From Actinomycetota bacterium (GTDB lineage Bacteria; Actinomycetota; Thermoleophilia; BMS3ABIN01): a stretch of DNA of 64,000 nucleotides. The position numbers were made by a program, and so were the translations under genes. Below are positions 20,927-44,783 of this stretch, one piece after another. The first letter of the stretch is position 1. The number at the start of each line of letters is the position of its first letter. A model generated the notes under the pieces. That model saw only the letters and a program-made list of their open reading frames with translations, did not search any database and was not told where the DNA came from. The DNA lies in NCBI GenBank assembly GCA_023489275.1, contig JAMDDD010000004.1, positions 27,802-91,801 on the forward strand, written 5' to 3'.

Positions 20927-21106
20927 AATCCCAAGTTCCAAGTTTTGAGTCTTGGACTCTTTCGTCAGATTGTAAGCGTTTGACTCTTTAATAGGCCGGA
21001 AAATTTTGTCGTTCTGAGTCCTAAGTTGGCTGGGAAATAGCCAACCCATTGGATTTCCGGAGGGAAAGCTTGGAACCTGGAACTTTGAACCTGGAACCTG
21101 TTTCTC

Positions 21107-22978: not shown

Positions 22979-23667
22979 CGATGGCTGTCATAACTCTCAT
23001 CCCGGTTATCGCCGAGCACGAACAGCTGACCGGACGGCACGGTTTCAGGGGGCATGGTGTAGGTGGTTGGCCTTGCGTTGGGAACCACGAAAGGCTGGGC
23101 GCCCTTGCCGTCGTGTTTGTCAATCAGAACCTGATCATTTTTGACCTCGACTGTGTCCCCCGGGAGGCCGATGACCCGCTTGACAAATGGCGTATCCGAG
23201 CCGAGACTGGCCGGCGGATTGAAAACGATAACGTCGCCGCGGTGAATCGATTCAAAGTGGTAGACAAGACGGTCGGCAAGGATGCGGTCATTATCCTGGA
23301 TCGTCGGAATCATCGATCCGGACGGAATCTGATACGGTTTGGCGACGGTGGCCTGAAAAATCATCGCCACCCCGAAAGCGATCACCAGCGGCGCCACGAT
23401 ATCAAGAAAGATGATGCGTAAAACGCCGCGTTTCTTTTTTTTCGGCGCCACCGCTTCCGGCGCCTGTTCGGGAGCGTCGGGATTAAAGTAATCATAATCC
23501 TCGTACTCCTGATAGACGGAATCAGGCTCCCGCGCCGGCCGATGGCTCCAGCCCAGCTCCGCCGGCGGTGGAGTAATCCAGCCGCCCCGGGGCTCGCCGG
23601 AATTTTTCTTTCCTGTCTCTTCGCGGTCGTTTTCGGGGAACAGGTCTCCCCCGTTAGTATCAGGCAT
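22891..23667 (-). CDS. lepB: signal peptidase I with a long acidic N-terminal extension
   Basis: S26 motifs (PSGSMIPT, KRVIGLPGDTVEV, GDNRDESYDSHRWGFV); ~90-aa Asp/Glu/Tyr-rich cytoplasmic N-terminus before the TM. Confidence 0.85.
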   Translation of the reverse strand: MPDTNGGDLFPENDREETGKKNSGEPRGGWITPPPAELGWSHRPAREPDSVYQEYEDYDYFNPDAPEQAPEAVAPKKKKRGVLRIIFLDIVAPLVIAFGVAMIFQATVAKPYQIPSGSMIPTIQDNDRILADRLVYHFESIHRGDVIVFNPPASLGSDTPFVKRVIGLPGDTVEVKNDQVLIDKHDGKGAQPFVVPNARPTTYTMPPETVPSGQLFVLGDNRDESYDSHRWGFVPMNNVIGRAELIYWPLNHLSLLGN

Positions 23668-23769
23668 GGCTTTCTCTTTTTTCAGCAGCCGGAGGCGATG
23701 CCCGCGGCCTTATCTTGCATCTTAACTGTTTTCGGCGAAGCCCGCCAAACGAAACCCGCAAACAGATTT

Positions 23770-24990
23770 TTACAGCTCCATCAGCCGGACAAACTCCTGC
23801 TGGAAGGTCTTGTTCAGGGGCAGCGCCACGTGCCTGATGCTGGCGCGAAGATCTGTCAGCCGCCGCCGGTTTTCCTCGCTCAGCAGCAGCACGGCTCCCT
23901 GGCAGGCGGCGTCGGGAGTCACTTCGACGCCGGCGGCGTCCGGAAACATTTTCAGCAGGCGGGCATTGTCCAGATTGATATAGCTGCCAAAGGTGCCAGT
24001 AATCAGCATCCGCGATAGCTCCCCCGCGCCCAGCTTTGTTTGCAGAACCGAGATAGCCGCATGGATGGAGGCTTTCACCAGCTGGAAGGAACGGATATCG
24101 TGCTGGCTCACCGTAATCGGGCGCTCGCCGCCCGCGACCGTTACCGGCCCTTCCCGGAGAAGGCGCCCGCTGCCGTCGATCCATCCATTTCGCCTCATCT
24201 CGGCAATTATATCAATGAGGCCGGAGCCGCAAATGCCTCTTGGCTCACCGCCTCCCACTACCTCAAACCGGAATTTTTCGCCGTCGAGCCTGGCTTTAAA
24301 AATCGCCCCTTGAGTCGCCGAGAGTCCAAATGACATGTGAGAATCCTCGTAGGCCGGACCGGCCGGAGCTGACGCGACAAATATACGGCCTTCACAACCA
24401 AGTGCTATTTCACAGTTCGTACCCACATCAACCGCCAGCGCCGGCTTTTCGCTGGCGGCCATGTTCATCAGGAAGATATCCGCCAGGGCGTCGGCGCCCA
24501 CGAAGCCGAAAACCGGCCGGGGGACAAACAGCGTTGCCTCAGGCGCCGCCAGGCCCAGCGCCGCCGCCGGACCGAGGTAATCCTTGGCGCCCCTGATGTT
24601 AAAAGGCGTCCCGCACAGCGGGGCCGGATCGAGATCGAGGATAAAGGCGTACATGGCCGAGTTCCCCACGGCGACGATCTCCTTTAGATCGCGGGCGCCG
24701 ATCCCTGCCTCGTCACCGAGAAACCCCAGAGAATCATTGATCGCTTCGATCACCTCCCGGTTGAGCTCCTGCCTGGCCGCCGGGTTCCCGGCGGCCAGCC
24801 CCAAACGGGTGGCGATATCGGCGCCGTGCTGCTGTTGCGGATTGGGCAGAACTGAAGTGCCGGCAACCGCCCCGTCCGCCAGCCGCACCAGCCGGGCCCA
24901 GATGCTCGATGTGCCGACGTCTATCGCCACCCCGTAACCGGAATCCGGGGCGCTTCCGCGGCTGATCCTGCTGTCGATTTTATCTGGCAT
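23770..24990 (-). CDS. ASKHA-domain protein (DUF4445; RamA/RACo-type activase ATPase domain) without a ferredoxin domain
   Basis: 406 aa; phosphate-1 motif GVAIDVGTSSIW and the ASKHA core; no Cys cluster for [2Fe-2S]/[4Fe-4S]. Confidence 0.65.
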   Translation of the reverse strand: MPDKIDSRISRGSAPDSGYGVAIDVGTSSIWARLVRLADGAVAGTSVLPNPQQQHGADIATRLGLAAGNPAARQELNREVIEAINDSLGFLGDEAGIGARDLKEIVAVGNSAMYAFILDLDPAPLCGTPFNIRGAKDYLGPAAALGLAAPEATLFVPRPVFGFVGADALADIFLMNMAASEKPALAVDVGTNCEIALGCEGRIFVASAPAGPAYEDSHMSFGLSATQGAIFKARLDGEKFRFEVVGGGEPRGICGSGLIDIIAEMRRNGWIDGSGRLLREGPVTVAGGERPITVSQHDIRSFQLVKASIHAAISVLQTKLGAGELSRMLITGTFGSYINLDNARLLKMFPDAAGVEVTPDAACQGAVLLLSEENRRRLTDLRASIRHVALPLNKTFQQEFVRLMEL

Positions 24991-25124
24991 TCGCCTTTGT
25001 CAAATATTTTCTTAAGTAGCTGTCCCGGGCTCGAAACTCCGGGAAATTTTACCCGCCGGGAAGGGCCAGGTAAAGGAAAAACCGGATTTTGGATTTTGGA
25101 CTCCGGATTTTTTAACCTCTAAAG

Positions 25125-25256
25125 ATGGAGAATTGTCTTTCCAAAAGCCCATCTCCTGCCACCGGCCTGGAGGCCAAAGCAAATGGAAAGAACCATATTT
25201 CTCTGATAAACTTGTTTTGTAATATGGGGTGTGGGATGTGGGATAATTTCACTTAA
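25125..25256 (+). CDS. candidate small ORF (43 aa; Cys/Gly/Met/Trp-rich C-terminus NLFCNMGCGMWDNFT), possible precursor peptide
   Basis: single ATG ORF in the AT-rich gap 95 nt upstream of the B12-rSAM gene, same strand; no clear RBS. Confidence 0.2.
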   Translation: MENCLSKSPSPATGLEAKANGKNHISLINLFCNMGCGMWDNFT

Positions 25257-25350
25257 AGGGGGGATCTGCTTTAGAATGCCTCTCCTTTCCGGTCGCGGCC
25301 CAAATTATACCAAATGAATGCAAATGCATCAAAGTTGGGAGACAGCGTAA

Positions 25351-26808
25351 ATGAAGTCCATGGTTATCCTCCCTTCCTGGAAGCCTGACGATATCTATCC
25401 CGCCAAACTCGCCCGGTCCGCAGTCAGCTACCAGCACCCCCTGGGTCTGCTTTATATTGCGACCTGCGTGCAGGAGGCCGGCCACGAGGTCGAGCTGGTT
25501 GATGGCGCTTTCTGGACGCATCAGGAGGTCCTAGACAAGGTGCGCCGCTTCCGGCCCCGGTTTGTCGGCGTCTCCGCCAACGCTTCGATGTGGACCAAGG
25601 CCATCAAGACCGCGGCCGGCATCAAGGCGATTGATCCCGCCATCCACGTCAGCGCCGCCGGTCCCTACCCTTCGGCTGTGGAGGAAAAGTGCCTGGTCGA
25701 CTGCCCGGATTTCGATTCCGCGGTTATCGGAGAAGGAGAAAAAACCATGCCGGAGCTGCTGAGCCGGCTGGAAGCAAACGCCGGCCTGGAAGGGGTAGCC
25801 GGCACCGCCTTTCGCCGCGATGACGGCCGGGTTCACCTTAACGAGCCCCGGCCCCTGATCGAGGACCTGGATTCCATCCCGATTCCGCGGCGGGAGCTGC
25901 TGGGAGATTTTGACAAGTATGAATCGCCGCCGGGAAGCTACCGGCGCAAGCCGATCGCGATCGTGATGACCTCGCGCGGCTGCAAGGCTCGCTGCATCTA
26001 CTGCTTCCAGATGAAGGGGGAGCACCGCATCCGCTTTCGCAGCGTTGATAATGTCGTCCGCGAAGTCAAAGAACTGGTGACCGATTACGGCTTTCGCGAG
26101 ATCAGGTTCCTCGATGAGACCTTCACCGCGGACCGGGAGCGCGCCATGGAGCTTTGCCGGCGCTTTCGCGATATCAAACCCGATTTTAGTTTTTATGTAT
26201 CATCCCGCGTGAACACCGTTGACTTTGAGCTGCTGCGTGAAATGAAACGGGCGGGCTGCTGGGCGATCCTTTTCGGCGCCGAGAGCGGCGTTCAGAAAAA
26301 TCTCAACACGCTGCGGAAGGGCATCACCCTGGATCAGACCAGAGCCGCGGTGGCGGCCGCCAAGAAAGCCGGCCTGAAGGTTTATACTCCGTTTATTATT
26401 GGTATTCCGGGCGAGACATATGAGGAAGCGCTGGAAACAGTAGACTTCGCCATCGAGCTCGATCCGCATTACGCCAACTTTCACACAATGACTCCCTTTC
26501 CCGGAACGGAGCTCTACGACAACGTTGAAAAATACGGCGTCATGTCGTCCAATACTGACGATTACACTTTTGAAGGAGCGGCATTCGTGCCATTTTCCAT
26601 GACTCGCGAGGAAATCGAGCAGGTCCGCACCCTGGCTTTTCGAAAGTTCTATTCCCGGCCAGGTTTTATTTTTAAAAGGATTTTCGAGATTCGCAGCGTT
26701 CATGATCTGAAAACCGTATCGAAGGGCGCAGCGAGTTTTTTCTGGCTGTGGACGCAGAGAAACGCCGCGTCGGCGAAATCCGGGATTCCCGGCAAGAAAA
26801 CAGGGTAG
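25351..26808 (+). CDS. B12-binding-domain radical SAM protein (class B rSAM)
   Basis: 485 aa; N-terminal cobalamin-binding Rossmann-like domain, CKARCIYC radical SAM motif, GGGAGA RBS. Confidence 0.85.
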   Translation: MKSMVILPSWKPDDIYPAKLARSAVSYQHPLGLLYIATCVQEAGHEVELVDGAFWTHQEVLDKVRRFRPRFVGVSANASMWTKAIKTAAGIKAIDPAIHVSAAGPYPSAVEEKCLVDCPDFDSAVIGEGEKTMPELLSRLEANAGLEGVAGTAFRRDDGRVHLNEPRPLIEDLDSIPIPRRELLGDFDKYESPPGSYRRKPIAIVMTSRGCKARCIYCFQMKGEHRIRFRSVDNVVREVKELVTDYGFREIRFLDETFTADRERAMELCRRFRDIKPDFSFYVSSRVNTVDFELLREMKRAGCWAILFGAESGVQKNLNTLRKGITLDQTRAAVAAAKKAGLKVYTPFIIGIPGETYEEALETVDFAIELDPHYANFHTMTPFPGTELYDNVEKYGVMSSNTDDYTFEGAAFVPFSMTREEIEQVRTLAFRKFYSRPGFIFKRIFEIRSVHDLKTVSKGAASFFWLWTQRNAASAKSGIPGKKTG

Positions 26809-26816
26809 CGGCGGTA

Positions 26817-27857
26817 ATGAGCGCATCTGAAATTTCCTCCCCGTCCGTCTCGATTGTCATCCCGGTTTACAACGGCGCCAGAACCATCAGGCTGGTGCTG
26901 GCGGCCGTATATGCTTCAAAGTTTCCGGATTTCGAAGTCATAATTGTCAATGACGGCTCCGGGGACGACACCGCGGCCGTGCTGGACGGCTGCGCCGCCG
27001 GGTTTCCCTTCCGCCTGATCACCTTTGAGCGCAACATGGGAGTCTCCCGGGCGCGCAACGCCGGGGCCCATGCCGCCCGCGGCGAGATCATCCTCTTCAT
27101 CGACGCCGACGTCCTCATCCAGCCGGACACCATCGACCTCTGCGTGGAACGGCTCAACCGGGGCGACTGCGTTTGCGTCGGCGGCGCCTACACCGTTGAT
27201 GCCTGGGACAAGGACTTTTTTAGCAGGTTTCAGTCGCTTTATATCCATTATGTTGAAACCAAGAATCCTTATCCTGATTATATAGCCACGCACTGCATGG
27301 CCATTCGCAAGGATGTGTTTGAAGGCTACGGAAGCTTTATCGAGGACTCGTTCATCGGCCATCAGGCCAGCGTCGAGGACGTCGAATTTTCCCACAGGAT
27401 CCTGAACGCGGGCGAGCGCCTGACGCGACCGTCCTACATCCAGGTGACGCATATCTTTCGCTTCAGTCTGGTCCGGTCGATCCGCAATGCCGTGAAAAAA
27501 AGCAAGTACTGGACCATGTACTCTTTGAAGAACCGCGATGTCACCAAGGACTCCGGAGCTGCCTCATATGAGCTAAAAGCCAATGTCTCGACCCAGACTT
27601 TGAACCTGGTCTTTGTGGTGGCCGCCCTGGCTACGCGTTTCTGGTGGCTCCTTTTGCCTGTCTCGCTCCTGTACGGCGCTAATATCGGGGTCAACTTTAA
27701 TCTGTTCAAGTTGATGCTGAGAAAGCGCGGTCCCTGGTTTCTTATTCGCGGCCTGCTTTATTTTCAATTCATCTACCCATTTGCCGTCGCCTATGGATCT
27801 TTCATCGGCACTATGAAATATCTGTGGGAGGTCAAGCTGCTCCGCCGGTATGGATAA
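26817..27857 (+). CDS. family 2 glycosyltransferase, polyprenyl-phosphate sugar synthase-like (GtrB/ArnC/DPM1-type) with 2 C-terminal TM helices
   Basis: SIVIPVYNGARTI...VNDGSGDDT...DAD GT2 motifs; C-terminal TM pair; ATG 8 nt after the upstream rSAM stop. Confidence 0.8.
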   Translation: MSASEISSPSVSIVIPVYNGARTIRLVLAAVYASKFPDFEVIIVNDGSGDDTAAVLDGCAAGFPFRLITFERNMGVSRARNAGAHAARGEIILFIDADVLIQPDTIDLCVERLNRGDCVCVGGAYTVDAWDKDFFSRFQSLYIHYVETKNPYPDYIATHCMAIRKDVFEGYGSFIEDSFIGHQASVEDVEFSHRILNAGERLTRPSYIQVTHIFRFSLVRSIRNAVKKSKYWTMYSLKNRDVTKDSGAASYELKANVSTQTLNLVFVVAALATRFWWLLLPVSLLYGANIGVNFNLFKLMLRKRGPWFLIRGLLYFQFIYPFAVAYGSFIGTMKYLWEVKLLRRYG

Positions 27858-27859
27858 CC

Positions 27860-27938
27860 AAGTTTCCCGTTGCCAGTTTCCGGTTTCGAGCATCGAGGCC
27901 GGAAACTTGAAACTCGACACCAGAAACTCGAAACTTTA
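27860..27938. repeat. intergenic word-repeat hairpin (AGTTTC/GAAACT units) between the GT2 and rSAM/SPASM genes
   Basis: cagtttccggtttcgag vs ccggaaacttgaaactcg / cagaaactcgaaact, seen directly. Confidence 0.6.
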
Positions 27939-27942
27939 GTTT

Positions 27943-29028
27943 ATGTATTCTCCCCTAAAATACGCGCCCCAGATTTTATTGAAGAACAGGCCGGTTCAGT
28001 TCACGTTCTTCGTTACCTCCCGCTGCAACGCCCGCTGCCCGTTTTGTTTTTACTGGCGCGGGCGGCACAGCAAGCGCCGGGAACTCGATCTGGACGAGAT
28101 CGAGAAGATCTCCCGCGGGATGGGAAGCCTGTTATGGTTGCTTTTTTCTGGCGGAGAGATCTTTCTGCGGCAGGACTTTGTCGATATCGCCGGCTCCTTT
28201 TACCGGAATAACAGACCCGCGATAATCACCCTGCCGACAAACGGGCTGGCCCCGGACCTGATCATCCCCAAGACGGAGGCGATCCTGGCCCTGGCCAGCA
28301 AAAGCGCGGTGGTGGTCAAGGTCTCGCTGGACGGCCTCGGCGATGAGCATGACCGGATCCGCAATACTCCCGGCAGCTTCGAAAAGGCGCTCGAGACCTG
28401 GGGAGAACTTAGCCGTCTGCGCGACCGCTTTCCCAACCTGCAGATCGGCATCAATACTGTTTTCTGCCGGGAAAATCAGGACCATATGGATCAGATCATT
28501 GATTTTGTCAACAATCTTCCCGGATGCGAAACCCATACAATCTCGCTGGTCAGAGGGGACCCGGCCGCACCTGAAACAAAGGATATCGATCTGGAGAAGT
28601 ACCGCCGGGCAATCATGCGTCTGGAGTCTGACTTGAAAGGGGCAAGCCCCAAGATGTACCATTTCAACCTGTCGCGGATAAAATCCGCACAGGATCTGGT
28701 CCAGCGGCAGCTCATCTATGAAACCGTGCGCCAGGGCCGTCGTCAACTTCGCTGCTTTGCCGGGCGCCTGGCTCTGGTCATGAACGAGGTGGGTGACGTC
28801 TTTCCTTGCGAGATTCTGGATGAGCAGATGGGAAACATCCGCGAGGCCGGCTACGATATGATGAAAATCTACCGGTCGTCACCGGCGGACGCCGTCCGGG
28901 CCCAGATCAGTAATTCCCGGTGTTATTGCTCTCACGAATGTTATTTCGTCACAAATATTCTTTTCAACCCCTTGATACACGGCAAGGTGATCAGGCAATA
29001 CGCGAGTCTGCCGCGGCCGGCCCGGTGA
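27943..29028 (+). CDS. radical SAM/SPASM-domain protein
   Basis: 361 aa; CNARCPFC radical SAM motif plus C-terminal auxiliary-cluster cysteines (RCFAG, FPCE, CYCSHEC). Confidence 0.8.
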   Translation: MYSPLKYAPQILLKNRPVQFTFFVTSRCNARCPFCFYWRGRHSKRRELDLDEIEKISRGMGSLLWLLFSGGEIFLRQDFVDIAGSFYRNNRPAIITLPTNGLAPDLIIPKTEAILALASKSAVVVKVSLDGLGDEHDRIRNTPGSFEKALETWGELSRLRDRFPNLQIGINTVFCRENQDHMDQIIDFVNNLPGCETHTISLVRGDPAAPETKDIDLEKYRRAIMRLESDLKGASPKMYHFNLSRIKSAQDLVQRQLIYETVRQGRRQLRCFAGRLALVMNEVGDVFPCEILDEQMGNIREAGYDMMKIYRSSPADAVRAQISNSRCYCSHECYFVTNILFNPLIHGKVIRQYASLPRPAR

Positions 29029-30725
29029 ACCGGGACCAGCCGGTCCTGCCGCGCGTTTCCGTTGTTGACAACGTGCGGCACGGCCGGATAGCGGCGGTGG
29101 CCCGTGCCACGGTTATCTTCCTGTTCGTTCTTGCCGTCACCGTGCCTTTCCTGGGACAGGCGTTTCACGTTGACGACGCCATCTTCTGGGACTTTGCCCG
29201 CAATAACCTGTCCCATCCCCTGGAGCAGCATCTGCCCAACTATTTTCTGATGGGGAAAGAAATTGCGGCGATGCGGGACACCCATCCGCCCCTGGATGAG
29301 CTTTATATCTCGCTGATAATGTCCATTGCGGGGGTCACCGCTTCGGAGTTTTTTTTCCATCTGGGATTCATCGTGTTTCCCCTGATTGCCGGCGTTTCCA
29401 TGTATTTCCTCGGCCGGCGCTTCACAAAGCATCCCCTCGCGGCAAGCCTGCTGTTCCTGTCGGCGCCGGCGGTAATGGTGATGTCGCACACGCTGATGGC
29501 GGACCTGCCGATGACGGCCCTCTGGATGGCCGCCACCGCCGCGTACATCTATGGTGTCGATGCGGACAGCCGGCGGCTGCTGGCGTTTTCGAGCCTGCTG
29601 ATAACGCTGGCAATTTTCATGGGGTACCAGTCTCTGGCCCTTCTTGTCCTCCTGCCGGCATACGCCTGGATCCGGCGGGGACGTCCAAGCCGCCGGAACG
29701 CTCTGCCGTTCTTGCTGCCGCTCCTGTCCTTCGCGCTGTTTACGTTGTTTAATTACGCCCGCTACGAGTCGCCTCCCCGCTTTTCTCACGCCGGCGGTCT
29801 GGGCGTAACAGAGAATGACGTCATCAGCCGGTTTCAGGGGATGATACTGGAAATGGGGGGCATAACAATTTTCCCGCCGCTGCTCGCGGCAGGGTTCATG
29901 CTGCGGCGCAAAAAATATCTGGCTTTGCCGCTAATCGCAGCGATCGCGGCGCTTCTCGGCTGGCGCCAGCTGGCGCCCGGTTATCCGGTCGCCAGCGCCG
30001 TTTTGTTTGGCATATTTGTCTTCGCGGGCGCCTCGATGCTGACAGGCCTGATTACAGAAGGAATAATCCAAATCGTCAACTGGGCCCGGCGCCTTCCGCT
30101 CGACCGGGATTTTCTTTTTCTGGCCCTGTGGCTGGTTTCAATCCTGGCGGCAATTGTCATCCTGCTGCCCCATACCCCGGCCAAATACTATCTGCCCGTA
30201 TTTGCCCCGTTGATCCTGTTGATGTTTCGTGAGGTGGAAACGGTATTTACTTCCCGGCGGATCGTGACCGGTTTTGCCGTCCTGGCCATCGTATTATCCT
30301 TAGTCACCGGCTTCTGGCTCTCGCTCGCCGACTACGAGCTGGCCCGGGCCTACAAGGACTTTGCCCTGTCCGTCCAGAGCCGCTACCGGCCCTCAGGCAC
30401 GGTCTGGTTTGTGGGGGAATGGGGATTCCGGCACTACATGGAGCAACAAAATTACAAATATCTAACCTCGGACAGCACCGCTCCGAAAAAGGGGGATTTG
30501 ATCATCGAGCCCAGTTACATGCAAAGGCCGGTAGCGCCTTCCCTCCAGAGCCGGATGCACCTGATCGGGGAACCGGCGGCCAATTGGGAGGTGCCGGTGC
30601 GGGTGATGAACATGCAGGCCGATGCCGGTTTTTACGGGACATACTGGGGCCGGCTGCCCTTTACCATTACCAGTCTCCCCCTGGAGCGGTTTAAGGTATT
30701 CCGCGTCGGGGACGGCAGCGGCTAG
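29025..30725 (+). CDS. GT-C-type membrane glycosyltransferase (ArnT/PMT, COG1807-like)
   Basis: ~11 TM helices with an acidic first-loop motif (HVDDAIFWDF) and a ~150-aa C-terminal extracytoplasmic domain; GTG start overlaps the upstream stop (GTGA), suggesting translational coupling. Confidence 0.6.
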   Translation: MNRDQPVLPRVSVVDNVRHGRIAAVARATVIFLFVLAVTVPFLGQAFHVDDAIFWDFARNNLSHPLEQHLPNYFLMGKEIAAMRDTHPPLDELYISLIMSIAGVTASEFFFHLGFIVFPLIAGVSMYFLGRRFTKHPLAASLLFLSAPAVMVMSHTLMADLPMTALWMAATAAYIYGVDADSRRLLAFSSLLITLAIFMGYQSLALLVLLPAYAWIRRGRPSRRNALPFLLPLLSFALFTLFNYARYESPPRFSHAGGLGVTENDVISRFQGMILEMGGITIFPPLLAAGFMLRRKKYLALPLIAAIAALLGWRQLAPGYPVASAVLFGIFVFAGASMLTGLITEGIIQIVNWARRLPLDRDFLFLALWLVSILAAIVILLPHTPAKYYLPVFAPLILLMFREVETVFTSRRIVTGFAVLAIVLSLVTGFWLSLADYELARAYKDFALSVQSRYRPSGTVWFVGEWGFRHYMEQQNYKYLTSDSTAPKKGDLIIEPSYMQRPVAPSLQSRMHLIGEPAANWEVPVRVMNMQADAGFYGTYWGRLPFTITSLPLERFKVFRVGDGSG

Positions 30726-30726
30726 A

Positions 30727-32166
30727 TCAGAACAGGAACTGTCTGGCGCTACGCAAATAATTGTTAAGAGTATGATAATTTTTCATGACGTGTATATGTT
30801 TAGCGATAATCCTCGGCCTCAAGTAGAATTCCCGGTACGCCTGCCGGGTTGCTTTGACCAGATCTTCGTGAGTTACGTTCCGATGCCGGTAAACCGGAAC
30901 GCCGGTAGGTACATAATCGCGCCAGTCCTTCATTATCAGTAGGCCCTCACGGCTGTATTTCTCGAACTCCTCGGTTCCCGGGAAGGGAACCATCACGGCA
31001 AAGCCCGCGCTGTCTAACTTTAGCTCCTTCGCAAAGGAGATCGTCTCAGCAATTGTCTCTTTCGTCTCTTCCAGGAAGCCAAAGAGAAAATAGCCGTGCG
31101 CCAGGATGCCAGCCCCGCGAGTCTGCCGCACCGCCTCTGCCACCCGCGCTTTGCTGATCTTCTTGATCTTGAGCAGCATCTCCGCGTTCCCCACTTCGAT
31201 GCCGTATTGCATCAGGCGGCAGCCCGCTTTTTTCATAGCCGCCAGCATCTCCGGGTCAATTTCGTTGGCCCGGGCGCTGCATGTCCAAGCGATAGAAAGA
31301 TTTTTTTCCTCGATAAGCCGGCATATCTCCATCAGCCTGTTCCGGTCACAAATCATTGACGGGTCGCGAAAAGAAAACGTCGTTACGCCGAAATCAAGGT
31401 TTAGCCAGCTGATTTCATCCACGATATTTTCAGCGCTCCGCAGGCGGTACCGTCTGCCCTGCTGGGAAGTAACATCGCAGAAGCTGCAACGATAAGGACA
31501 TCCGCGACCGCTGATGATGCACGAAAATTTTCCTCGGTTTCCCCAGGCCGGATACGGGTTATACCTGGCAGGTTCGGGTAGCAGATCATGAGCCGGAAAT
31601 GGAAGGCTGTCAAGGTCCGAATTTCGGGCGCGGCCAGGATTGTGCTTTGGAATATTGCCTCCATTCATTGAAACCGTGCCGGCGATATTACCGATCGGAG
31701 AACCCGCGGCCACCGCATCACAAATCTCCTGCATTGTTTCTTCGCCCTCTCCCACCACAGCTATATCTACCGCATGATGGCTGGCGGCCTCTGCCGGTAA
31801 AGCAGTCACATGAGGTCCGCCGACGGCGGTGCAGATGTTTTTATTAACTCCTTTGACGATCACCGCGACCTTTTCCGCGTCGGGCCATTGCGGCGTTAAA
31901 GAAGAAATGCCAACAATCTGGGGCTGGAAAGAACGCACGGCCTCTCTGATTTCGCTGGCGGACGACCCGATCGAATATCCGTCCAATATTTGGACCACAT
32001 GATGTTTCTGCCGAATAGCAGCGGCAATGTAAGCCAACCCCAGGGGCTGCGTAGAAATCCAGGGACGTTGCACAGAATCTTTCCAGAGCCCTGACGGCGG
32101 TGTAATCAACAGGACCTTCACAGCCGCGGCGGCGCCCGCTTGCTTATAATTGCAAGATTTAGTCAA
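30727..32166 (-). CDS. B12-binding-domain radical SAM protein (second paralogue)
   Basis: 479 aa; cobalamin-binding N-domain, CPYRCSFC motif; convergent with the GT-C gene (stops 2 nt apart). Confidence 0.85.
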   Translation of the reverse strand: MTKSCNYKQAGAAAAVKVLLITPPSGLWKDSVQRPWISTQPLGLAYIAAAIRQKHHVVQILDGYSIGSSASEIREAVRSFQPQIVGISSLTPQWPDAEKVAVIVKGVNKNICTAVGGPHVTALPAEAASHHAVDIAVVGEGEETMQEICDAVAAGSPIGNIAGTVSMNGGNIPKHNPGRARNSDLDSLPFPAHDLLPEPARYNPYPAWGNRGKFSCIISGRGCPYRCSFCDVTSQQGRRYRLRSAENIVDEISWLNLDFGVTTFSFRDPSMICDRNRLMEICRLIEEKNLSIAWTCSARANEIDPEMLAAMKKAGCRLMQYGIEVGNAEMLLKIKKISKARVAEAVRQTRGAGILAHGYFLFGFLEETKETIAETISFAKELKLDSAGFAVMVPFPGTEEFEKYSREGLLIMKDWRDYVPTGVPVYRHRNVTHEDLVKATRQAYREFYLRPRIIAKHIHVMKNYHTLNNYLRSARQFLF

Positions 32167-32265
32167 AGAATCCCCACCGGATCGTGTTTTATTTGAATAA
32201 CAAGAAAAGAGATTGCTTTCATACTAATGCTACAAGCAACGCCCTTGTTGGTCAATTGCGCGGGG

Positions 32266-32910
32266 CTAGTGTCCCCTTTTGCCCAGTAGCTCCCGGCACA
32301 CCGCCAGCGTGCTTTTGACGTCACTGGCAAACGCATCGACGCCCACATCGCGGGCCAGCTCTTCCGAGTGGGCGGCTCCGCCGGAAACAACCTTCACGCG
32401 TCCGCGCAGGCCGGCCTCCTCCAACGCCGTAAGGACCTCGACCAGCGCCTGCTTGGTGGAGGTAGTAAAGGCAGAGAGGAGGAGCAGGTCTGCGTTTACC
32501 TCCTTGACCCGATCCACGAATTTGCCGGCAGGCACATTCACGCCGAGATCGTGCACTTCGTAACCGGAGGCCCGGAGCGCCGACACGATGATATTCTTGC
32601 CTATATTGTGGATATCGCCTTTGACCGTCCCGATGACGATGACGCCGCTAAAGTCACGACGCCGCTCAAACAGATATGGATCCAGCAACGAAAGCGCTTT
32701 CTCCACCGCTTCAGCCGAGCGGAGCATTTCCGGGATAAAATACTCCCCTGTTTCGTATTTCCCGCCGACAGTTTCCATAGCCCCGGAAAGGCTGTTGATG
32801 ATTGCGTCGGGCCGAACCTCCGCCACCCTGGTTATATCCTCGGCGATGGCGGCGGCCGCGTCGGCGTCACCGTCAATGATGGCCTTTTGAAAACGGCTTA
32901 ACAAATCCAT
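32266..32910 (-). CDS. corrinoid (cobalamin-binding) protein of methyltransferase systems (MtaC/MtbC-like)
   Basis: 214 aa; N-terminal helical cap plus Rossmann B12 domain with the DxHxxG motif (DIHNIGKN). Confidence 0.8.
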   Translation of the reverse strand: MDLLSRFQKAIIDGDADAAAAIAEDITRVAEVRPDAIINSLSGAMETVGGKYETGEYFIPEMLRSAEAVEKALSLLDPYLFERRRDFSGVIVIGTVKGDIHNIGKNIIVSALRASGYEVHDLGVNVPAGKFVDRVKEVNADLLLLSAFTTSTKQALVEVLTALEEAGLRGRVKVVSGGAAHSEELARDVGVDAFASDVKSTLAVCRELLGKRGH

Positions 32911-32928
32911 ATCTGTTCATTGTCCGGG

Positions 32929-33936
32929 TTAATATTTTCCAAATTCCCTGCCAAATTCGACCAGAGCAGCCACATTCTCTTCCGGAGCGCTTGATGGTAT
33001 CGAGTCTCCGGTGCTAAGGATAAACCTTCCGCCGGGCTTCGCGGCCTCCAGGGCCGCCCGGACCGCGCTTTCGACATCGGCGCGGCTGCCTTTTTCAATA
33101 ACGCCGACCGCATCGATATTCCCCTTCAGCACCACTGCGCTTCCCACCGCCTCGCGCGCCTTGATCAGGTCAACGGGAGAGTCGATCTCGAGCACGGCAG
33201 CTCCGGTCCTGGCCATATCCGGCAGGATTGGCAGGCTGTTCCGGCAGACGTGCAGAATCACCGGCAGCTTTCCCCCGAGCTCTTTAACTGCTTCCGCTTC
33301 TGACGGAAAGGCAAATTCGAGGTAGTGCCCCGGGGAAATCATGCTCGAAGATGCAAAGGAATCCTTGATGACCAGGGCGTCGACCCCGGAGCCGGCAAGC
33401 GCCAGTCCCAGCGTTATCGTTGCCGGAAAACAGGCATCGATTAGATCCCGGACCAGCCCCGGGTTCCCGTAAAAATCGGTCATGAAGCCGATCAAACCGC
33501 GAACCGTCGCCGCGAATTCAAACGGCGACCGGACCGACCCGATGACAACGCTGTCGCCGGCCGCCTCGACCAGCTGCTGAACGGGCTCCATCTTTCCCTC
33601 CGCCCAGGGATCCGGAACCTTGACCTTGGTCAGATCCTCCGGGCCGTTGACCAGCGTGTCAACCACCAGCGGCACCTGATGCCCCCGCACCTCCAGGGGA
33701 CACCCAAGGACATTTGGATTTTCACCCAGGCCCATTTCGGCGACGACGCCGTCGCAGCCGAGCCGCCTCAGCCCCTCGGCCAGCGCCGCCGCCATGCAGG
33801 CGCCGTCCAGCCAGCATTCATCATTTTTCCGGCCGGTCAGCCGGGGGGCAAAGTACCCGTCCAGGACGGGGATGACAGGGACAAAATCGGGCTGCTCGCC
33901 GGCGATGACCGCCGCAAACCTGTCGCGGGGATTCAT
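32929..33936 (-). CDS. MtaA/CmuA-type methyltransferase (uroporphyrinogen decarboxylase, URO-D, fold)
   Basis: 335 aa; URO-D family TIM barrel; 19 nt upstream of the corrinoid protein gene. Confidence 0.7.
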   Translation of the reverse strand: MNPRDRFAAVIAGEQPDFVPVIPVLDGYFAPRLTGRKNDECWLDGACMAAALAEGLRRLGCDGVVAEMGLGENPNVLGCPLEVRGHQVPLVVDTLVNGPEDLTKVKVPDPWAEGKMEPVQQLVEAAGDSVVIGSVRSPFEFAATVRGLIGFMTDFYGNPGLVRDLIDACFPATITLGLALAGSGVDALVIKDSFASSSMISPGHYLEFAFPSEAEAVKELGGKLPVILHVCRNSLPILPDMARTGAAVLEIDSPVDLIKAREAVGSAVVLKGNIDAVGVIEKGSRADVESAVRAALEAAKPGGRFILSTGDSIPSSAPEENVAALVEFGREFGKY

Positions 33937-33963
33937 CCGGCGTCCCTCATCGAGAGCCCGGTT

Positions 33964-34311
33964 TCATGCCTGGACGGCCTCCAGATGCGGGGCTTCCTTC
34001 CAGAGGATTTCAAGACGGTAAAAATCGCGCGACTCCGGCGTGAAAATGTGCGCCATTACATTTAGATAATCCATCAAAATCCAGTCTCCCTCCTGCTCGC
34101 CCTCCACCCGGGGGGGAGCGGCGCCGGCGCTTTTCAGGCGCATCCTGATTTCTTCGCAGATTGCCTTCGCCTGGCGCGGATTACGGCCGGTGCAGATAAC
34201 AAAATAATCGGTAAAAGAACACGTGTCTTTCATTTCAAGGACGATGATGTCCTCGGCTTTTTTCTCAGCGGCCGCCGCCGCGATCTCTTTTGCCAGCTGT
34301 TCGTTATTCAG
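33964..34311 (-). CDS. rsfS: ribosomal silencing factor RsfS (Iojap), probable CTG start
   Basis: DYLNVMAHIFTPESRDFYRLEILW core; the conserved N-terminus (EQLAKEIAAAAAEKKAEDIIVLEM) lies upstream of the first ATG and is bounded by an in-frame stop, so only a CTG at 34311 (GAGAGGT RBS 5 nt upstream) can start it. Confidence 0.7.
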   Translation of the reverse strand: MNNEQLAKEIAAAAAEKKAEDIIVLEMKDTCSFTDYFVICTGRNPRQAKAICEEIRMRLKSAGAAPPRVEGEQEGDWILMDYLNVMAHIFTPESRDFYRLEILWKEAPHLEAVQA

Positions 34312-34347
34312 TTAGTACCTCTCATTACTATCAGCGATTAATCATCA

Positions 34348-35565
34348 TCATGAATTGCTTATATCTCTTCCTATAATAACAATGATTTGCTTCTTTTCCA
34401 GGGAGTCATCCTTGATTATCGTTCCCTTGCCCAGCAGATTCTCCACCTGCCCGCCGCCGTCAAGAGCGTCGCTGCCGCATCTGATCTGTGTGGAATCATA
34501 GCCTACATCTGACGCGTCGGTGGCAGGCGCCATCTTGAAACGGAGCGGCGCCAGTTTGGCGGTCACCGCGTCAATCACCGGCTGGCCGACACCGCCGTTC
34601 CGGATCTCGAGGGTAAACGCGGAATTGGCGGGGGAGCCGGACGTCAGCACGGAAAGCTCTGCCGGCTGCGGCTCAAAGTACCAGGCCTGGCCCTCCCCGG
34701 CAGCCTGCACCGGCAGCGCCCAGACGCCGAAAGGCTGTCCCGGGGTCGTAATGGAAACAAATAAATTGGCAAAGCTGTCCTCACCCAGGTCGGTCTGCAC
34801 CTGCCGGTAGAGCTGCCCGGCAAAGGTCCTCCGTTCGCCTTCGGGCTTGCCGCTGAGTCCCGCGAACAACCCCTGATAAAACAATGCCTGAATCTGCGGA
34901 CCGGCGCTGCCGTCATTGACAGTTTCATTTAGATATGACATGGCCTGCCGGGGGTCGGCAGGGTTGTCCCCCTTGCCAAGGTTGACGGACCCGTCGGCGC
35001 TCCGAAGCGGTTCCAGGGCCTTGAAATCGACACTGCCCGCCTCGGACGCCATCAGCCCTAGGGCGCCGGAATTAAAAATCACATGATAGCGGATGGGAAG
35101 CCGGAGCAGATCGGCCACCGTCTGGTCAAGTAAAGACTGGCCGCCGGTATTGATGATCTGGTCCAGCCGCTCAAAGCCGTGGCCCGGCACGTCCGCCAGC
35201 GTCCGCGCGGGCAGCGTGTAGAGGCTGTAACCTTTTTGAGAAACTTCCAGCAGCAAGATCTGGGTAAGATTTCCCTGGTCGATGCCGCTAAAGATAACGT
35301 TTTGGCTGTCTCCGGTTTCGGACCGGGCCGCCGCGGAACTTCCCCTGGATTTCTCCAGCAGGACGATGCCCGTAAATACGGCGGCAGAAAGAAATATGCC
35401 CGCGAGAAGAGTCAGGTATGTTTGCCGCCGGCGAAGACGCCGCCGCCGCTCGGCCAGCCGGGTCCGGCGCGAGCCGGGGGCCGGAACCTCGCCTGCCCGG
35501 GAGCGGTAATGGCTGCCGCGATAGCGCCGGCCCCGCCTATGCTTTTCGATAGAGCCCTTCCTCAT
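34348..35565 (-). CDS. LCP (LytR-CpsA-Psr) family protein with a LytR_C domain
   Basis: Arg-rich cytoplasmic N-terminus, one TM, LCP core (NVIFSGID...LYTLPARTLADVPGHGFERLDQIINTGG) and a C-terminal LytR_C-like domain; between nadD and rsfS. Confidence 0.65.
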   Translation of the reverse strand: MRKGSIEKHRRGRRYRGSHYRSRAGEVPAPGSRRTRLAERRRRLRRRQTYLTLLAGIFLSAAVFTGIVLLEKSRGSSAAARSETGDSQNVIFSGIDQGNLTQILLLEVSQKGYSLYTLPARTLADVPGHGFERLDQIINTGGQSLLDQTVADLLRLPIRYHVIFNSGALGLMASEAGSVDFKALEPLRSADGSVNLGKGDNPADPRQAMSYLNETVNDGSAGPQIQALFYQGLFAGLSGKPEGERRTFAGQLYRQVQTDLGEDSFANLFVSITTPGQPFGVWALPVQAAGEGQAWYFEPQPAELSVLTSGSPANSAFTLEIRNGGVGQPVIDAVTAKLAPLRFKMAPATDASDVGYDSTQIRCGSDALDGGGQVENLLGKGTIIKDDSLEKKQIIVIIGRDISNS

Positions 35566-40171: not shown

Positions 40172-40588
40172 TTACAGACCGGCGACCTTGATCCGGTTGA
40201 GAGCTCTCCGGCGGGCCCGCTGCGCGCGGTGCGTGTCCACCCCTTCTTCCTGGCTGCGGCCCAGCCATGACTCGGCCCGCGCCAGAGCCGCCTGGGCCCG
40301 TTCAATGTCAATCTCTGACGCCATTTCCGCAGTGTCAACCAGAAGCAACAGCCTGTCGAACTGCATCTTGGCATATCCGTCTCCCACGGCCAGTTCCTGC
40401 CGGCCGGTTGTTTCGCCGTACACGTGGGCCCTGCCGATTACCGTACTGGTCACGATCGGCGCATGCCGGGGCATGATGCCGAGCTCTCCCGTCTCGCCGG
40501 GGATGACTACTATCAAAGCGTCATCGCTCAAAATGAGCCCTTCCGGCGTAACGATCTCGCATTGGAGCCTTTTGCTAGTTTCTTCCAT
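40172..40588 (-). CDS. atpC: F1 ATP synthase epsilon subunit
   Basis: LQCEIVTPEGLILSDDALIVVIPGETGELGIMPRHAP. Confidence 0.9.
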   Translation of the reverse strand: MEETSKRLQCEIVTPEGLILSDDALIVVIPGETGELGIMPRHAPIVTSTVIGRAHVYGETTGRQELAVGDGYAKMQFDRLLLLVDTAEMASEIDIERAQAALARAESWLGRSQEEGVDTHRAQRARRRALNRIKVAGL

Positions 40589-40615
40589 ATCCGCAGGCCT
40601 TTTCCTTCCTGGCGC

Positions 40616-42085
<1,470 letters not shown>

Positions 42086-42104
42086 TCACTCCCTATAAAA
42101 TCAG

Positions 42105-42175
42105 GTTTCCAGTTTCTGGTTTCTAGTCTCTAGTTGTCATTTTTACAGGTTTTAACTAGAAACTGGAAACTATAA
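42105..42175. repeat. intra-operon hairpin (AGTTTC units) between atpG and atpD
   Basis: ccagtttctggtttctagt ... actagaaactggaaact (15/17 complementary). Confidence 0.6.
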
Positions 42176-42186
42176 ACTCAAAACTT

Positions 42187-43080
42187 TTATCCTAAAGCTT
42201 CCGCTCCCGCTACAACTTCCAGGATGTCCTGCGTAATCGCCGCCTGGCGCGCCTTGTTCATCGCCAGAGTCAGCTTTCCGACCATCTCCTCGGCGTTTTC
42301 CGAAGCGCTGCGCATCGCCGTCATCCGGGCGCCATGCTCGCTGGCGGTTGATTCCAGCAGTGCCCGGTAAATTGTGTTATCAACATAACTGGGGAGCAGG
42401 CTCCGGAGGATGCCGGCAGCGCTGGGCTCATAAATGAAATCCCCTTGCAGCTTTCGCGCTTCCTCGGAAACCTCGGGCTCCGTCGTCACGATCTCCTCAC
42501 CCAGAGGCAGAATCACCTCTTCGGTAACGGTTTGCTCCATGGGGGACTTGAAATGGTTGTACACAAGATAAACGCGGTCAACTTCACCCGCGATATACAT
42601 GGTAACAACGCGGTGGGCGATATCTTCCGCATCGGTAAATTTGGGGCGGTCGGTAATGCCGGTGATCGCCTCCCTCACGTTGACCCCGCGGAAGCGCATG
42701 GTGCCTACTCCCTTGCGGCCGACAATGACCCACTCAACGCCCTTGCCCTCGGCGTGCGCGGCGCTCTGGATTGACAGGGAATGCCTGATGATGTTGGCGT
42801 TAAACGCTCCGGCCAGGCCGCGGTCGCCGGTCAACATGACGATAGCGATCCGCTTTTCCTCGTCGTGCACCTTAAGCAACGGAAATTCTTCACCGCCCTC
42901 GGAGTGCCGGGCGACTTCCTGCATTAACTCCATCATCCGCTCGGCGTAAGGCCTCAGCGCTTCGATGCGATTCTGGGCGCGCCGGAGCCGGGCGGCCGCC
43001 ACCATCTCCATGGCCTTGGTGGTCTTGCGAGTATTTTTTACCGAAGCAATCCGGCGTGCTATATCTCTGAACGCTGCCAT
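42187..43080 (-). CDS. atpG: F1 ATP synthase gamma subunit
   Basis: 297 aa with the conserved gamma termini. Confidence 0.9.
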   Translation of the reverse strand: MAAFRDIARRIASVKNTRKTTKAMEMVAAARLRRAQNRIEALRPYAERMMELMQEVARHSEGGEEFPLLKVHDEEKRIAIVMLTGDRGLAGAFNANIIRHSLSIQSAAHAEGKGVEWVIVGRKGVGTMRFRGVNVREAITGITDRPKFTDAEDIAHRVVTMYIAGEVDRVYLVYNHFKSPMEQTVTEEVILPLGEEIVTTEPEVSEEARKLQGDFIYEPSAAGILRSLLPSYVDNTIYRALLESTASEHGARMTAMRSASENAEEMVGKLTLAMNKARQAAITQDILEVVAGAEALG

Positions 43081-43193
43081 CAGATATTATTCCTGATCAA
43101 TTTTAACATCCTGTTTCCAGCTGTCATTCCGAGGAGCAAAGCGGCGAGGAGCCTCCAGCTCCTTCGCTTCGCTCAGGATGACAATATCGTTGT

Positions 43194-44783
43194 TTAAGCC
43201 GTGGCCGCTTCTGCAGCTTCCGGTTCCGCGGCCGTGGGCGCCGGCACATTCAGCTGCTCATGGTCCGGCTGGAAGTCCTTCAGGAATTCCTCCATGGCGG
43301 CGCGGAGCCTGGCATCGGTGTCGTCCGAGATTTCCTTCTCTTCGCGGATCACGGTCAGAAGCTCCGGATGCTCGCTGTGCAGCCGGGCGATCAGGCCGGA
43401 GTTGAAGTCCGGAACGCGGTCTACGCTGACCTTGTCCAGGAATCCCTGGGTCGCGGCAAAAATAACCGCTACCTCCTCTTCAACCGGAAAGGGCTGATAC
43501 TGCCCCTGGTTAAGAGCGGCAACCATCCGCTCGCCCCGGGCCAGCTGCGCCTGCGTCGCCGCATCCAGCTCCGAGCCGAACTGCGCAAAAGCCTTTAGCT
43601 CGTTGTACTGGGCCAGGTCAAGCCGAAGCTTGCCGGCAACCTTCTTCATCGCCTTGATCTGGGCGTCGCCGCCAACGCGGCTGACCGAGATGCCGACGTT
43701 GATGGCCGGCCGCACGCCGGAGTAAAACAGGTCCGGCTCGAGGAAGATCTGGCCGTCCGTGATCGAAATGATATTGGTCGGGATGTAAGCTGAGACGTCA
43801 CCGGCCTGGGTTTCCACGACTGGCAGAGAAGTGATCGAGCCACCGCCGAGGTCATCGGACAACTTGACGCCGCGTTCCAGCAACCGTGAATGCAGGTAGA
43901 AGACGTCACCGGGATAAGCTTCGCGCCCCGGCGGACGCCTGAGCAGCAGCGACATCTGGCGGTAGGCGTCAGCGTGCTTGGTCAGATCGTCGTAGATACA
44001 CATGGCTTCGCCGCCCTTGTAGCAAAAATATTCAGCCATCGCGGTGCCGACATAGGGGGCCATGAACTTCAGCGGCGCGCGCTCGGAGGCGGCGGCGAGC
44101 ACAACAATCGTATAATCCATGGCGCCGTGCTCTTCCAGTTTGGCGACGACGCTGGCCACATTGGAAGCCTTCTGGCCAATCGCCACATAGATGCAGATTA
44201 CATCCTGCCCCTTCTGATTGATGATGGTGTCCACCGCGATGGCCGTCTTGCCGGTGCGGCGGTCGCCGATGATCAGCTCGCGCTGACCGCGGCCGATGGG
44301 GATCATCGAGTCGATCGACTTGATTCCGGTCTGCAGCGGCGTGCTTACGTGCTGCCGGGCAATCACGCCCGGGGCCTTGAACTCGACCGGCCGGTACTCG
44401 GATGTCTCGATCGGGCCCCTGTCGTCGATCGGCCTCCCGAGAGCATTGACAACGCGGCCGATCAGCGCTTCTCCCACCGGCACGCTCATGACCCTGCCAG
44501 TGCGCTTGACCAGGTCGCCCTCTTGAATCAGGGTGTCCTCGCCCATCAACACGGCGCCGACATTGTCTTCTTCCAGGTTTAGCGCCAGGCCCACGACATC
44601 GTGGGGAAGCTCGAGCATCTCCGATGCCATCGCCTTCTCCAGGCCGTGGATGCGGGCGATGCCGTCACCGACCTCGAGAACGCGGCCGACCTCTTCAACC
44701 TCGACCTCAGCCTCGTAGTTCTCAATCTGGCTCTTGAGAACAGCGGTAATTTCTTCAGGACGCAGTTTCAAAGCTATCTTCAC
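43194..44783 (-). CDS. atpA: F1 ATP synthase alpha subunit
   Basis: [23 protein letters not shown] Walker A. Confidence 0.97.

Follow-up and report, generated by a model that had tools for sequence, protein, structure and literature searches.

A corrinoid methyltransferase, a small corrinoid protein and a ferredoxin-less RACo-like ATPase are encoded together with class-B radical SAM enzymes in a Thermoleophilia genome and in other lineages

A 64,000-nucleotide stretch of an actinobacterial metagenome-assembled genome (MAG) of the Thermoleophilia (contig JAMDDD010000004.1, positions 27,802 to 91,801; the whole stretch is hereafter called the window) contains genes for three parts of a methanogen-type methyl-transfer system, namely, a URO-D-superfamily corrinoid methyltransferase, a small corrinoid protein and a RACo-like activator, collectively referred to here as the triad. 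They lie beside two genes for class-B (B12-binding) radical S-adenosylmethionine (SAM) enzymes, A and B, and genes for two glycosyltransferases (Table 1). A housekeeping row that ends in rsfS continues into the genes for the methyltransferase and the corrinoid protein, and no terminator-like site was found in the 27-nt gap between the rsfS stop (33964) and the methyltransferase start. The gap from the methyltransferase to the corrinoid protein gene is 18 nt and that from the corrinoid protein gene to the start of class-B gene B (32166) is 99 nt, with all these genes on the minus strand. The end of gene B is separated by 1 nt from the convergent PMT_2 gene, which is the last gene of a plus-strand operon in the order class-B gene A, family-2 glycosyltransferase (GT2), radical SAM/SPASM and PMT_2, and the RACo-like gene is divergent from this operon, with 360 bp between them. 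A preliminary description of this DNA, made from the letters alone, had listed these parts and placed the co-directional methyltransferase and corrinoid protein genes 27 nt after rsfS and continuing into a class-B radical SAM gene; all the named genes exist as it stated, and its observations were confirmed in every particular.

Table 1. Genes of the cluster and the adjoining rsfS gene, with their positions in the window and supporting domain matches
Gene product	Position	Strand	Domains and remarks
RsfS	33964-34233	-	PF02410; closes the housekeeping row proB-proA-nadD-lytR-rsfS
URO-D-superfamily corrinoid methyltransferase (335 aa)	32929-33936	-	PF01208, 181 bits
Small corrinoid protein (cobalamin carrier, 214 aa)	32266-32910	-	PF02607 (B12-binding_2 cap) and PF02310 (B12-binding Rossmann)
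Class-B radical SAM enzyme B	30727-32166	-	PF02310 and PF04055
PMT_2/ArnT-like membrane glycosyltransferase of the GT-C fold	28920-30725	+	PF13231
Radical SAM/SPASM-domain enzyme	27943-29028	+	PF04055 and PF13186; kept in synteny
Family-2 glycosyltransferase (GT2)	26748-27857	+	PF00535, 111 bits; kept in synteny
Class-B radical SAM enzyme A	25351-26808	+	PF02310 and PF04055; first gene of the divergent operon
RACo/RamA-type ASKHA ATPase (406 aa)	23770-24990	-	PF17651, 115 bits; PF14574, 178 bits

To follow the triad outside the window, 57 loci were compared by tblastn and a hidden Markov model purpose-built for class-B radical SAM enzymes. The Thermoleophilia arrangement, shared by more than 20 related MAG loci, is one in which nadD, lytR, rsfS, the methyltransferase gene, the corrinoid protein gene and zero to three class-B genes are met by the oppositely directed PMT_2, radical SAM/SPASM, GT2 and class-B A genes, followed by the RACo-like gene. 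Among the loci that extend past the corrinoid protein gene, both the number (zero to three) and the subfamily of the class-B genes in front of PMT_2 vary; class-B enzyme A is 74-80% identical across the lineage wherever the locus extends that far, and the rest of its operon is likewise present, except that tblastn did not pick up PMT_2 in L013 or in L041, its duplicate. Overlaps occur in L003, of 4 nt between rsfS and the methyltransferase gene and of 1 nt between the corrinoid protein gene and the class-B gene after it. Because the block recurs in more than 20 related MAG loci, its arrangement is not a matter of chance. In a second type (L005 and L028), with methyltransferases 46-47% identical to that of the window, the triad stands among at least three to five class-B-like genes together with one to four PMT_2 genes, a DegT aminotransferase and a carbamoyltransferase; the RACo-like gene of L028 overlaps a class-B gene by 4 nt, and up to five class-B genes lie within 16 kb. 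A third type (L006, L036, L051 and L052; methyltransferases 39-41% identical) is a tight operon in the order RACo-like gene, methyltransferase, corrinoid protein, in some cases a class III aminotransferase, a 234-aa protein and two class-B enzymes. Its flanks differ between contigs, and the whole operon of L006 is translationally coupled. The cluster types with class-B genes come from Thermoleophilia MAGs, a 'Woesearchaeota'-labelled type and an unassigned type; they combine the triad with one to five class-B genes, and PMT_2 co-occurs in two of the three.

Control regions gave no such association. Neither the approximately 54 kb that lie beyond the cluster in the window nor the six control loci (82 kb), which carry outgroup URO-D genes or other short RACo genes, contain a class-B radical SAM gene, and no corrinoid protein, RACo or class-B gene was found beside the outgroup URO-D proteins. 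From the differently ordered clusters and the empty controls, we conclude that the linkage between the methyltransferase clade and class-B radical SAM genes is real and has survived at least three rearrangements. The preliminary description had proposed a functional tie to the neighboring class-B enzymes, with loading or repair of their cobalamin as an example; the tie in general is now better founded, as the triad occurs with such enzymes in three independently arranged types, with gene overlaps in L003, L006 and L028. Literature searches, full-text ones among them, on corrinoid-protein systems together with class-B radical SAM genes and on the methyltransferases of this lineage gave no paper in which the two are linked, and a 2026 review of class-B enzymes nowhere mentions corrinoid proteins, chaperones or RamA-type activators in its text. 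We regard this conserved coupling as new.

Several neighbors of the triad deserve separate mention. Every operon of the third type encodes a conserved protein of 234-236 aa between the corrinoid protein and class-B genes (L036:10746-11450; L006:13015-13725; also in L051 and L052), with the motifs YWGCGDR, TDVHA, FPGHILFTYNGREY and a C-terminal KPWFCD; it matches nothing in Pfam or the PDB, and the window has no homologue. Another protein of about 240 aa is common to L028 (9190-9957, minus strand) and L005, where it is duplicated (8157-8891 and 8969-9667, both minus strand); its gene is on the opposite strand to the methyltransferase gene, just upstream of it. In L005, the N-terminal domain of the radical SAM subfamily present there also occurs by itself, as a free-standing copy at 11017-11433. 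In loci of the Hydrothermarchaeota type (L027:157-3694; also L026, L038, L039, L047 and L048), a true hemE is found 1.5 kb away from the genes for the His-Cys-Asp methyltransferase and the corrinoid protein, so that two URO-D paralogues of different function are neighbors; a succinyl-CoA ligase alpha subunit is encoded between the corrinoid protein and hemE, and an STT3 oligosaccharyltransferase afterwards. The triad of a Muiribacteriota contig (L031:4952-9986) is flanked by a protein isoaspartate methyltransferase (PCMT) upstream and by an AdoMet decarboxylase and a GNAT acetyltransferase downstream.

The methyltransferases of these loci belong to a rare clade whose metal site is altered. When 1.84 billion representatives were searched exhaustively with a profile, only five to six clusters at 50% identity scored above 400 bits, below which the scores drop to 264 bits, the level of the general MtaA-like population. 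About 70 clusters at 64% identity or higher come from MAGs labelled Thermoleophilia, Gaiellales or 'Actinomycetes', and a few more distant members, at 54, 50, 46, 39 and 30% identity, are from MAGs labelled Hydrothermarchaeota, 'Woesearchaeota' or Muiribacteriota or belong to metagenome contigs without assignment. Alignment of the window protein to MtaA (4AY7) showed that the His-x-Cys pair is kept (His229 and Cys231), whereas Asp311, within the motif S-T-G-D-S, stands where MtaA has its third zinc Cys. HxC[RK] and [ST]GDS are present in all members of the clade, whereas 125 of the 143 next-best proteins have H-x-C-G and Cys, i.e., a His-Cys-Cys site. In the URO-D superfamily, His-Cys-Cys sites mark S- and Se-methyltransferases, and replacement of Cys by Asp or Glu marks O-methyltransferases (Kountz and Balskus, PMC10418091). 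Following this rule, we infer from the His-Cys-Asp site that the substrate of the window enzyme is oxygen-linked. The invariant basic residues of the clade, the Arg or Lys after the Cys and the Lys of a KDS motif, would suit an anionic substrate and suggest that it is one. The clade itself, with its His-Cys-Asp site and extreme rarity, is new.

The window enzyme is neither HemE nor a standard MtaA. It is only about 23-25% identical to Methanosarcina mazei MtaA and scored below the NCBIfam cutoffs for mtaA_cmuA (TIGR01463; 123.5 versus 235.4 bits), the MtaA equivalog (105.5 versus 400 bits) and MtbA (96.6 versus 600 bits), and no coenzyme M (CoM)-related genes were seen in the window. An AlphaFold2 model (pLDDT 91, pTM 0.92) has the expected TIM barrel, and the best Foldseek matches were MtaA (4AY7 and 4AY8; TM 0.78-0.79, E about 1e-18) and HemE, with MetE lower down. 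Identity with HemE was refuted. The hemE model (TIGR01464) gave 60.9 bits against a cutoff of 302.95; the RQAGR-type N-terminal motif, by which HemE binds its substrate, is not present in residues 1-40; the HxC motif of corrinoid methyltransferases is present; and the protein is always encoded beside a corrinoid protein. Furthermore, a separate true hemE product (415 bits to PF01208) is encoded in the Hydrothermarchaeota-type loci.

The corrinoid protein has a cap and a Rossmann B12 domain with an intact His-on DxHxxG motif (GDIHNIG). Its best PDB relatives are 1Y80, MttC (7XCN) and the corrinoid protein of a Desulfitobacterium O-demethylase (4JGI), and it scored below every substrate-specific NCBIfam cutoff. 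The RACo-like protein aligns to residues 197-615 of RACo (3ZYY) with 172 bits, and it follows from this coverage that it has neither the 2Fe-2S nor the linker domain. Raco_middle and RACo_C_ter were the only domains detected, and neither a Fer2 or Fer4 domain nor a CxxC-type Cys cluster motif was found by the Pfam scan and a motif check, in agreement with the preliminary description. The DxGT phosphate motifs are kept (AIDVGTS and VDVGTN align with those of RACo), and the orthologues in the same block of related genomes are likewise short (387-430 aa). This ATPase is presumed, from its domains, to be the ATP-dependent reductive activator of the corrinoid protein, in which case its electrons would have to come from a separate protein, since it has no 2Fe-2S ferredoxin or linker domain of its own. 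An Fe-S-less activator as a fixed partner is new. Other ferredoxin-less RACo-like proteins, about 35% identical, are encoded in L033 (10001-11212) and L035 (5789-7051) directly after rnfCDGEAB and a thioredoxin gene, and a third short one (L034) lies among purine genes. We rejected the idea that all ferredoxin-less RACo proteins belong to the module, as others follow rnf operons. The position of these short activators after rnfCDGEAB and thioredoxin suggests the Rnf complex or a ferredoxin as their electron source.

Both class-B enzymes of the window have an N-terminal B12-binding domain and a radical SAM core that passes the CxxxCxxC filter. Their best NCBIfam match is HpnJ, an enzyme of hopanoid sugar rearrangement, at 206-228 bits (206 for enzyme B) against a cutoff of 578, and no curated cutoff of a characterized subfamily (HpnJ, BchE, PhpK, BzaD and others) was reached. 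The closest solved structure to both is AprD4 (6FD2), a sugar-modifying diol-dehydratase, as a weak match far below membership level; AprD4 is not known to use its cobalamin for methylation. No class-B partner of the triad was found to be orthologous across the lineages, the identities being 19-36%.

The partner methyltransferase that such systems usually have was sought in the window by Pfam scans covering nearly all substantial open reading frames (ORFs) of the 64 kb; the ATP-synthase genes at 42187-45854 were instead assigned from their synteny with L003, and some small ORFs, below about 125 aa, were outside the scans. No MtrH/pterin-binding, MttB, MtaB, corrinoid iron-sulfur protein or MetH-type gene was found, and Pfam calls within 10 kb on either side of L003, L005, L006 and L036 gave neither a substrate-specific first methyltransferase (MT1) nor a second, pterin-binding one (MT2). 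That neither is visible locally had been noted in the preliminary description, which took the URO-D protein as MtaA-type, hence in need of an MT1, and the missing partner as something to be explained. The local absence stands, whereas the MtaA-type assignment is doubtful in view of the score of 123.5 bits against 235.4 and the His-Cys-Asp rather than His-Cys-Cys site. The lack of a second methyltransferase is, by analogy with known systems, not anomalous in itself. MtsA catalyzes both half-reactions, and an MT1/corrinoid protein pair of Desulfitobacterium shuttles methyl groups between phenols in vitro. Clusters of mlp genes lack a folate methyltransferase, and some of their host genomes lack any tetrahydrofolate methylase (PMC10418091). 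In EmtAB, which works with a RACE-like protein, SAM loads the cobalamin and estrogens are methylated, so that a second methyltransferase is unneeded (PMC7448270). Because these precedents run without a folate methyltransferase in the cluster, the premise of an obligatory MT1 or MT2 is a weak one. Of the two possibilities raised earlier, a system split across loci or a repurposed one, it is the repurposing that has gained support.

Our reading, put forward tentatively, is that the three components of the triad make up a single cobalamin methyl-transfer module that is a dedicated, O-directed accessory of a class-B radical SAM/glycosyltransferase tailoring pathway and not a fragment of a catabolic system for methylotrophy or O-demethylation. 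In its support, the domains and motifs of all three proteins are intact, and the attachment of the genes to a housekeeping operon without a terminator argues against substrate-induced catabolism. The sharply bounded family with its own metal-site signature, the three gene orders with their overlapping genes, the empty controls, PMT_2 in two of the cluster types, the sugar-modifying AprD4 as closest solved relative, the O-type rule of PMC10418091 and the single-methyltransferase precedent of EmtAB (PMC7448270) point the same way. Judging from domain content, the pathway in the window genome looks like a polyprenyl-phosphate-sugar type system (GT2 and GT-C) with radical tailoring, and its GT2 and GT-C (PMT_2) enzymes probably act on a cell-envelope glycolipid or glycan. 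In such a module, the cobalamin of the corrinoid protein would cycle between Co(I) and CH3-Co(III), and accidentally formed Co(II) would be returned to Co(I) by the ATPase with ATP and an external low-potential electron donor. Methyl transfer by the URO-D enzyme would run between the cobalt and an oxygen-linked position in an intermediate that the adjacent radical SAM and glycosyltransferase enzymes produce; this single methyltransferase may carry out both half-reactions, or it may take the methyl group from SAM. The analysis shows the genes, their domains and motifs, the rarity of the clade and the conserved operonic linkage; we infer the pathway intermediate as substrate, the O-specificity, the direction of transfer and the methyl source.

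Several points weigh against the accessory-module reading. The Thermoleophilia loci count as only one evolutionary observation, the glycosyltransferase and PMT_2 genes are absent from the third cluster type, and the class-B enzymes that accompany the triad are not orthologous between lineages. No class-B gene lies on the Hydrothermarchaeota-type contigs (9 kb or less; methyltransferase, corrinoid protein, sucD, hemE and STT3) or on the one 10-kb Muiribacteriota contig (PCMT, RACo-like gene, methyltransferase, corrinoid protein and AdoMet decarboxylase). The O-type interpretation of the His-Cys-Asp site follows a rule from a preprint (PMC10418091). Moreover, one half-reaction is without an assigned catalyst, and no substrate, methyl donor or acceptor has been identified. 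Finally, a constant module beside variable pathways fits a generic helper of class-B enzymes at least equally well.

Such a helper would supply or restore the methyl-cob(III)alamin of the co-encoded class-B enzymes, whether by ATP-driven reduction of Co(II) to Co(I) by the RACo-like protein, by a methyl relay from the corrinoid protein that spares one SAM per turnover, or by delivery of a pre-methylated cofactor. The constant partners of the triad across lineages are class-B enzymes of many subfamilies, as many as five in L028, whereas all else varies; the RACo-like gene in L028 and the corrinoid protein gene in L003 overlap with class-B genes; and the third cluster type contains the triad, the 234-aa protein, two class-B enzymes and almost nothing more. 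RamA-like DUF4445 proteins reactivate B12 domains other than those of small corrinoid proteins, for example that of MetH (PMC5764234), and the 2026 review is silent on corrinoid proteins, chaperones and RamA-type activators. Nevertheless, we consider the helper function rather doubtful, since thousands of genomes run class-B enzymes without the triad, known class-B enzymes remethylate their cobalamin from SAM, and a metal-dependent URO-D methyltransferase implies a small-molecule heteroatom substrate that would be needless for simple repair. In addition, the closest solved relative of the window enzymes, AprD4, is not known to use its cobalamin for methylation. A specific form of this idea, a dedicated service system in which the activator and a methyl-loaded corrinoid protein, charged by the O-type URO-D enzyme from a non-SAM donor, keep the cobalamin of the class-B enzymes methylated, is in our judgment unlikely; if true, it would amount to SAM-sparing radical C-methylation and to the first known in vivo partner of class-B enzymes for cobalamin reduction or methyl supply.

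Alternatively, an ordinary O-demethylase or methylotrophic system could be split, its MT1, corrinoid protein and activator being encoded here and its MT2 and electron donor elsewhere, with the proximity to class-B genes lacking functional significance. The component types do match the O-demethylases of acetogens and Desulfitobacterium, to which the relationship with 4JGI and the O-type metal site (PMC10418091) can be added, and methoxylated compounds are plausible substrates for a lineage of subsurface and sediment MAGs. The search for an MT2 covered the window and the regions within 10 kb of four loci rather than whole genomes; it found neither MT1 nor MT2 there. Since the linkage to class-B genes is kept through three gene orders, with overlapping genes, and since the genes are attached to a housekeeping operon and not to a regulated catabolic one, we judge such a split quite improbable. 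Still less probable, to the point of being very unlikely, is a thiol-type enzyme akin to MtaA, MtsA or core-MetE that methylates a thiol such as homocysteine and so recycles the S-adenosylhomocysteine and methionine left over by the SAM-demanding radical SAM enzymes. The enzyme does have its fold and HxC motif in common with MtaA and MetE, and the triad of L031 is flanked by the SAM-related PCMT and AdoMet decarboxylase genes; however, the third Cys is replaced by Asp in every clade member, whereas S-type sites retain at least two Cys (PMC10418091), the MtaA and CmuA cutoffs were not reached, and no methyl source is present. A uroporphyrinogen decarboxylase of the haem pathway that is accidentally paired with a corrinoid protein has next to no probability: membership in PF01208 and the HemE structures among the best fold matches speak for it, but it is refuted by the 60.9 against 303 bits, the missing RQAGR-type motif, the HxC motif, the constant adjacency of the corrinoid protein and the separate true hemE. 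The preliminary description had named grouping with true HemE as an observation that would overturn its proposal; judged by score, the protein does not belong there.

Cofactor supply, reduction and remethylation of class-B radical SAM enzymes in cells are poorly understood, and these enzymes are notoriously hard to reconstitute. A module that travels with many class-B genes offers three soluble proteins to test as their physiological partners. If the module does serve a tailoring step, it would represent corrinoid-dependent, probably O-directed methyl transfer in the biosynthesis of a cell-envelope glycoconjugate and not in energy metabolism. In both cases the module extends the growing set of methanogen-type methyltransferases known outside methanogens, and the Cys-to-Asp metal site and the Fe-S-less activator are two testable departures from textbook systems.

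The rest of the window contains only housekeeping genes according to the Pfam scans, including secDF, tgt/queA/queH, ruvABC, pdxST, proBA, nadD and those for the ATP synthase beta and a subunits, with the remainder of the ATP synthase row assigned by synteny. An Rfam scan of the whole window gave no family at gathering score, with no tRNA, riboswitch or rRNA match. No cobalamin riboswitch was found near the three cobalamin-binding genes, with a single chance-level Rfam match at E of 1 or lower within 23500-34500. As regards a RiPP (a peptide of ribosomal origin that is modified after translation), no conserved precursor-peptide ORF was present between the RACo-like gene and class-B gene A in 14 loci, except in the near-identical L007. 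Two gene starts call for comment. The real start of the PMT_2 gene is probably near 29025, because gene callers give a protein of 566 aa (gene calls in L001 and L002). With its listed ATG (34233), the rsfS ORF matches the Pfam model only from position 21 onward, and the in-frame codons 5' of this ATG read LNNEQLAKEIAAAAAEKKAEDIIVLE, a typical RsfS N-terminus, and reach a CTG at 34311 right after a TAA; rsfS (33964-34311, minus strand) therefore has a probable non-canonical CTG start or a mis-called start. A 668-aa ORF at 19703-21709 (minus strand) has no Pfam match and overlaps an IMPDH-like gene (19769-20926, plus strand) and an RpiR regulator gene (21107-21976, plus strand), and an ORF at 40424-42133 (plus strand) stands opposite the ATP synthase beta subunit gene; both are most likely shadow ORFs of GC-rich sequence. 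The window also encodes a 930-aa BNR/YCF48-like repeat protein (50183-52975), two large proteins without a Pfam match (53174-54976, 600 aa; 55187-56770, 527 aa) and a caspase-domain (Peptidase_C14) protein (6803-7693, plus strand) inserted between tgt and queA of the queuosine row.

Compared with known systems, the triad resembles MtaA, MtbA and MtsA of methanogens in its URO-D barrel, HxC motif, adjacent DxHxxG corrinoid protein and RamA/RACo-type activator. It differs in its 23-25% identity, its scores below the NCBIfam cutoffs, the replacement of the third zinc Cys by Asp and of the Gly after the Cys by Arg or Lys, the lack of an MT1, its host, an actinobacterial MAG without signs of CoM metabolism in the window, and its class-B neighbors. 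With the four-component O-demethylases of acetogens and Desulfitobacterium, it shares a URO-D-type methyltransferase, a 4JGI-related corrinoid protein, a RACo-type activator and probably, by the rule of PMC10418091, the carboxylate substitution at the metal site. Unlike in these systems, no pterin-binding MT2 is nearby, the activator has no 2Fe-2S domain, and the genes end a housekeeping operon beside radical SAM and glycosyltransferase genes instead of forming a catabolic operon. The type 1 mlp clusters (PMC10418091) likewise combine a corrinoid protein with an activator of the Ram/RACE type, of a truncated kind in the triad, and have no tetrahydrofolate methyltransferase; however, their Mlps number two or three, with Mlp2 and Mlp3 as the minimum, and have His-Cys-Cys sites, and the clusters, which occur mainly in Firmicutes, are tied to the metabolism of sulfur and selenium, whereas a single URO-D gene with His-Cys-Asp, an Fe-S-less activator and a link to class-B enzymes are found here, and radical SAM is not mentioned in the mlp paper. 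EmtABCD (PMC7448270) is similar in having one methyltransferase, one corrinoid subunit and an ATP-dependent activator and in methylating in the anabolic direction, but EmtA is MtmB-like and not URO-D-like, and the system has a steroid substrate, a catabolic context and no radical SAM genes. Compared with the RACo, RamA and DUF4445 activators, the window protein has the middle and ASKHA ATPase domains without the N-terminal 2Fe-2S ferredoxin and linker. The class-B enzymes share the B12-binding domain and CxxxCxxC core of HpnJ, BchE, AprD4 and TokK but miss the curated cutoffs. To our knowledge, no described class-B radical SAM enzyme works with a separate corrinoid protein, methyltransferase and activator. 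All of the part families, as well as MtaA-like gene clusters without folate methyltransferases, were already known.

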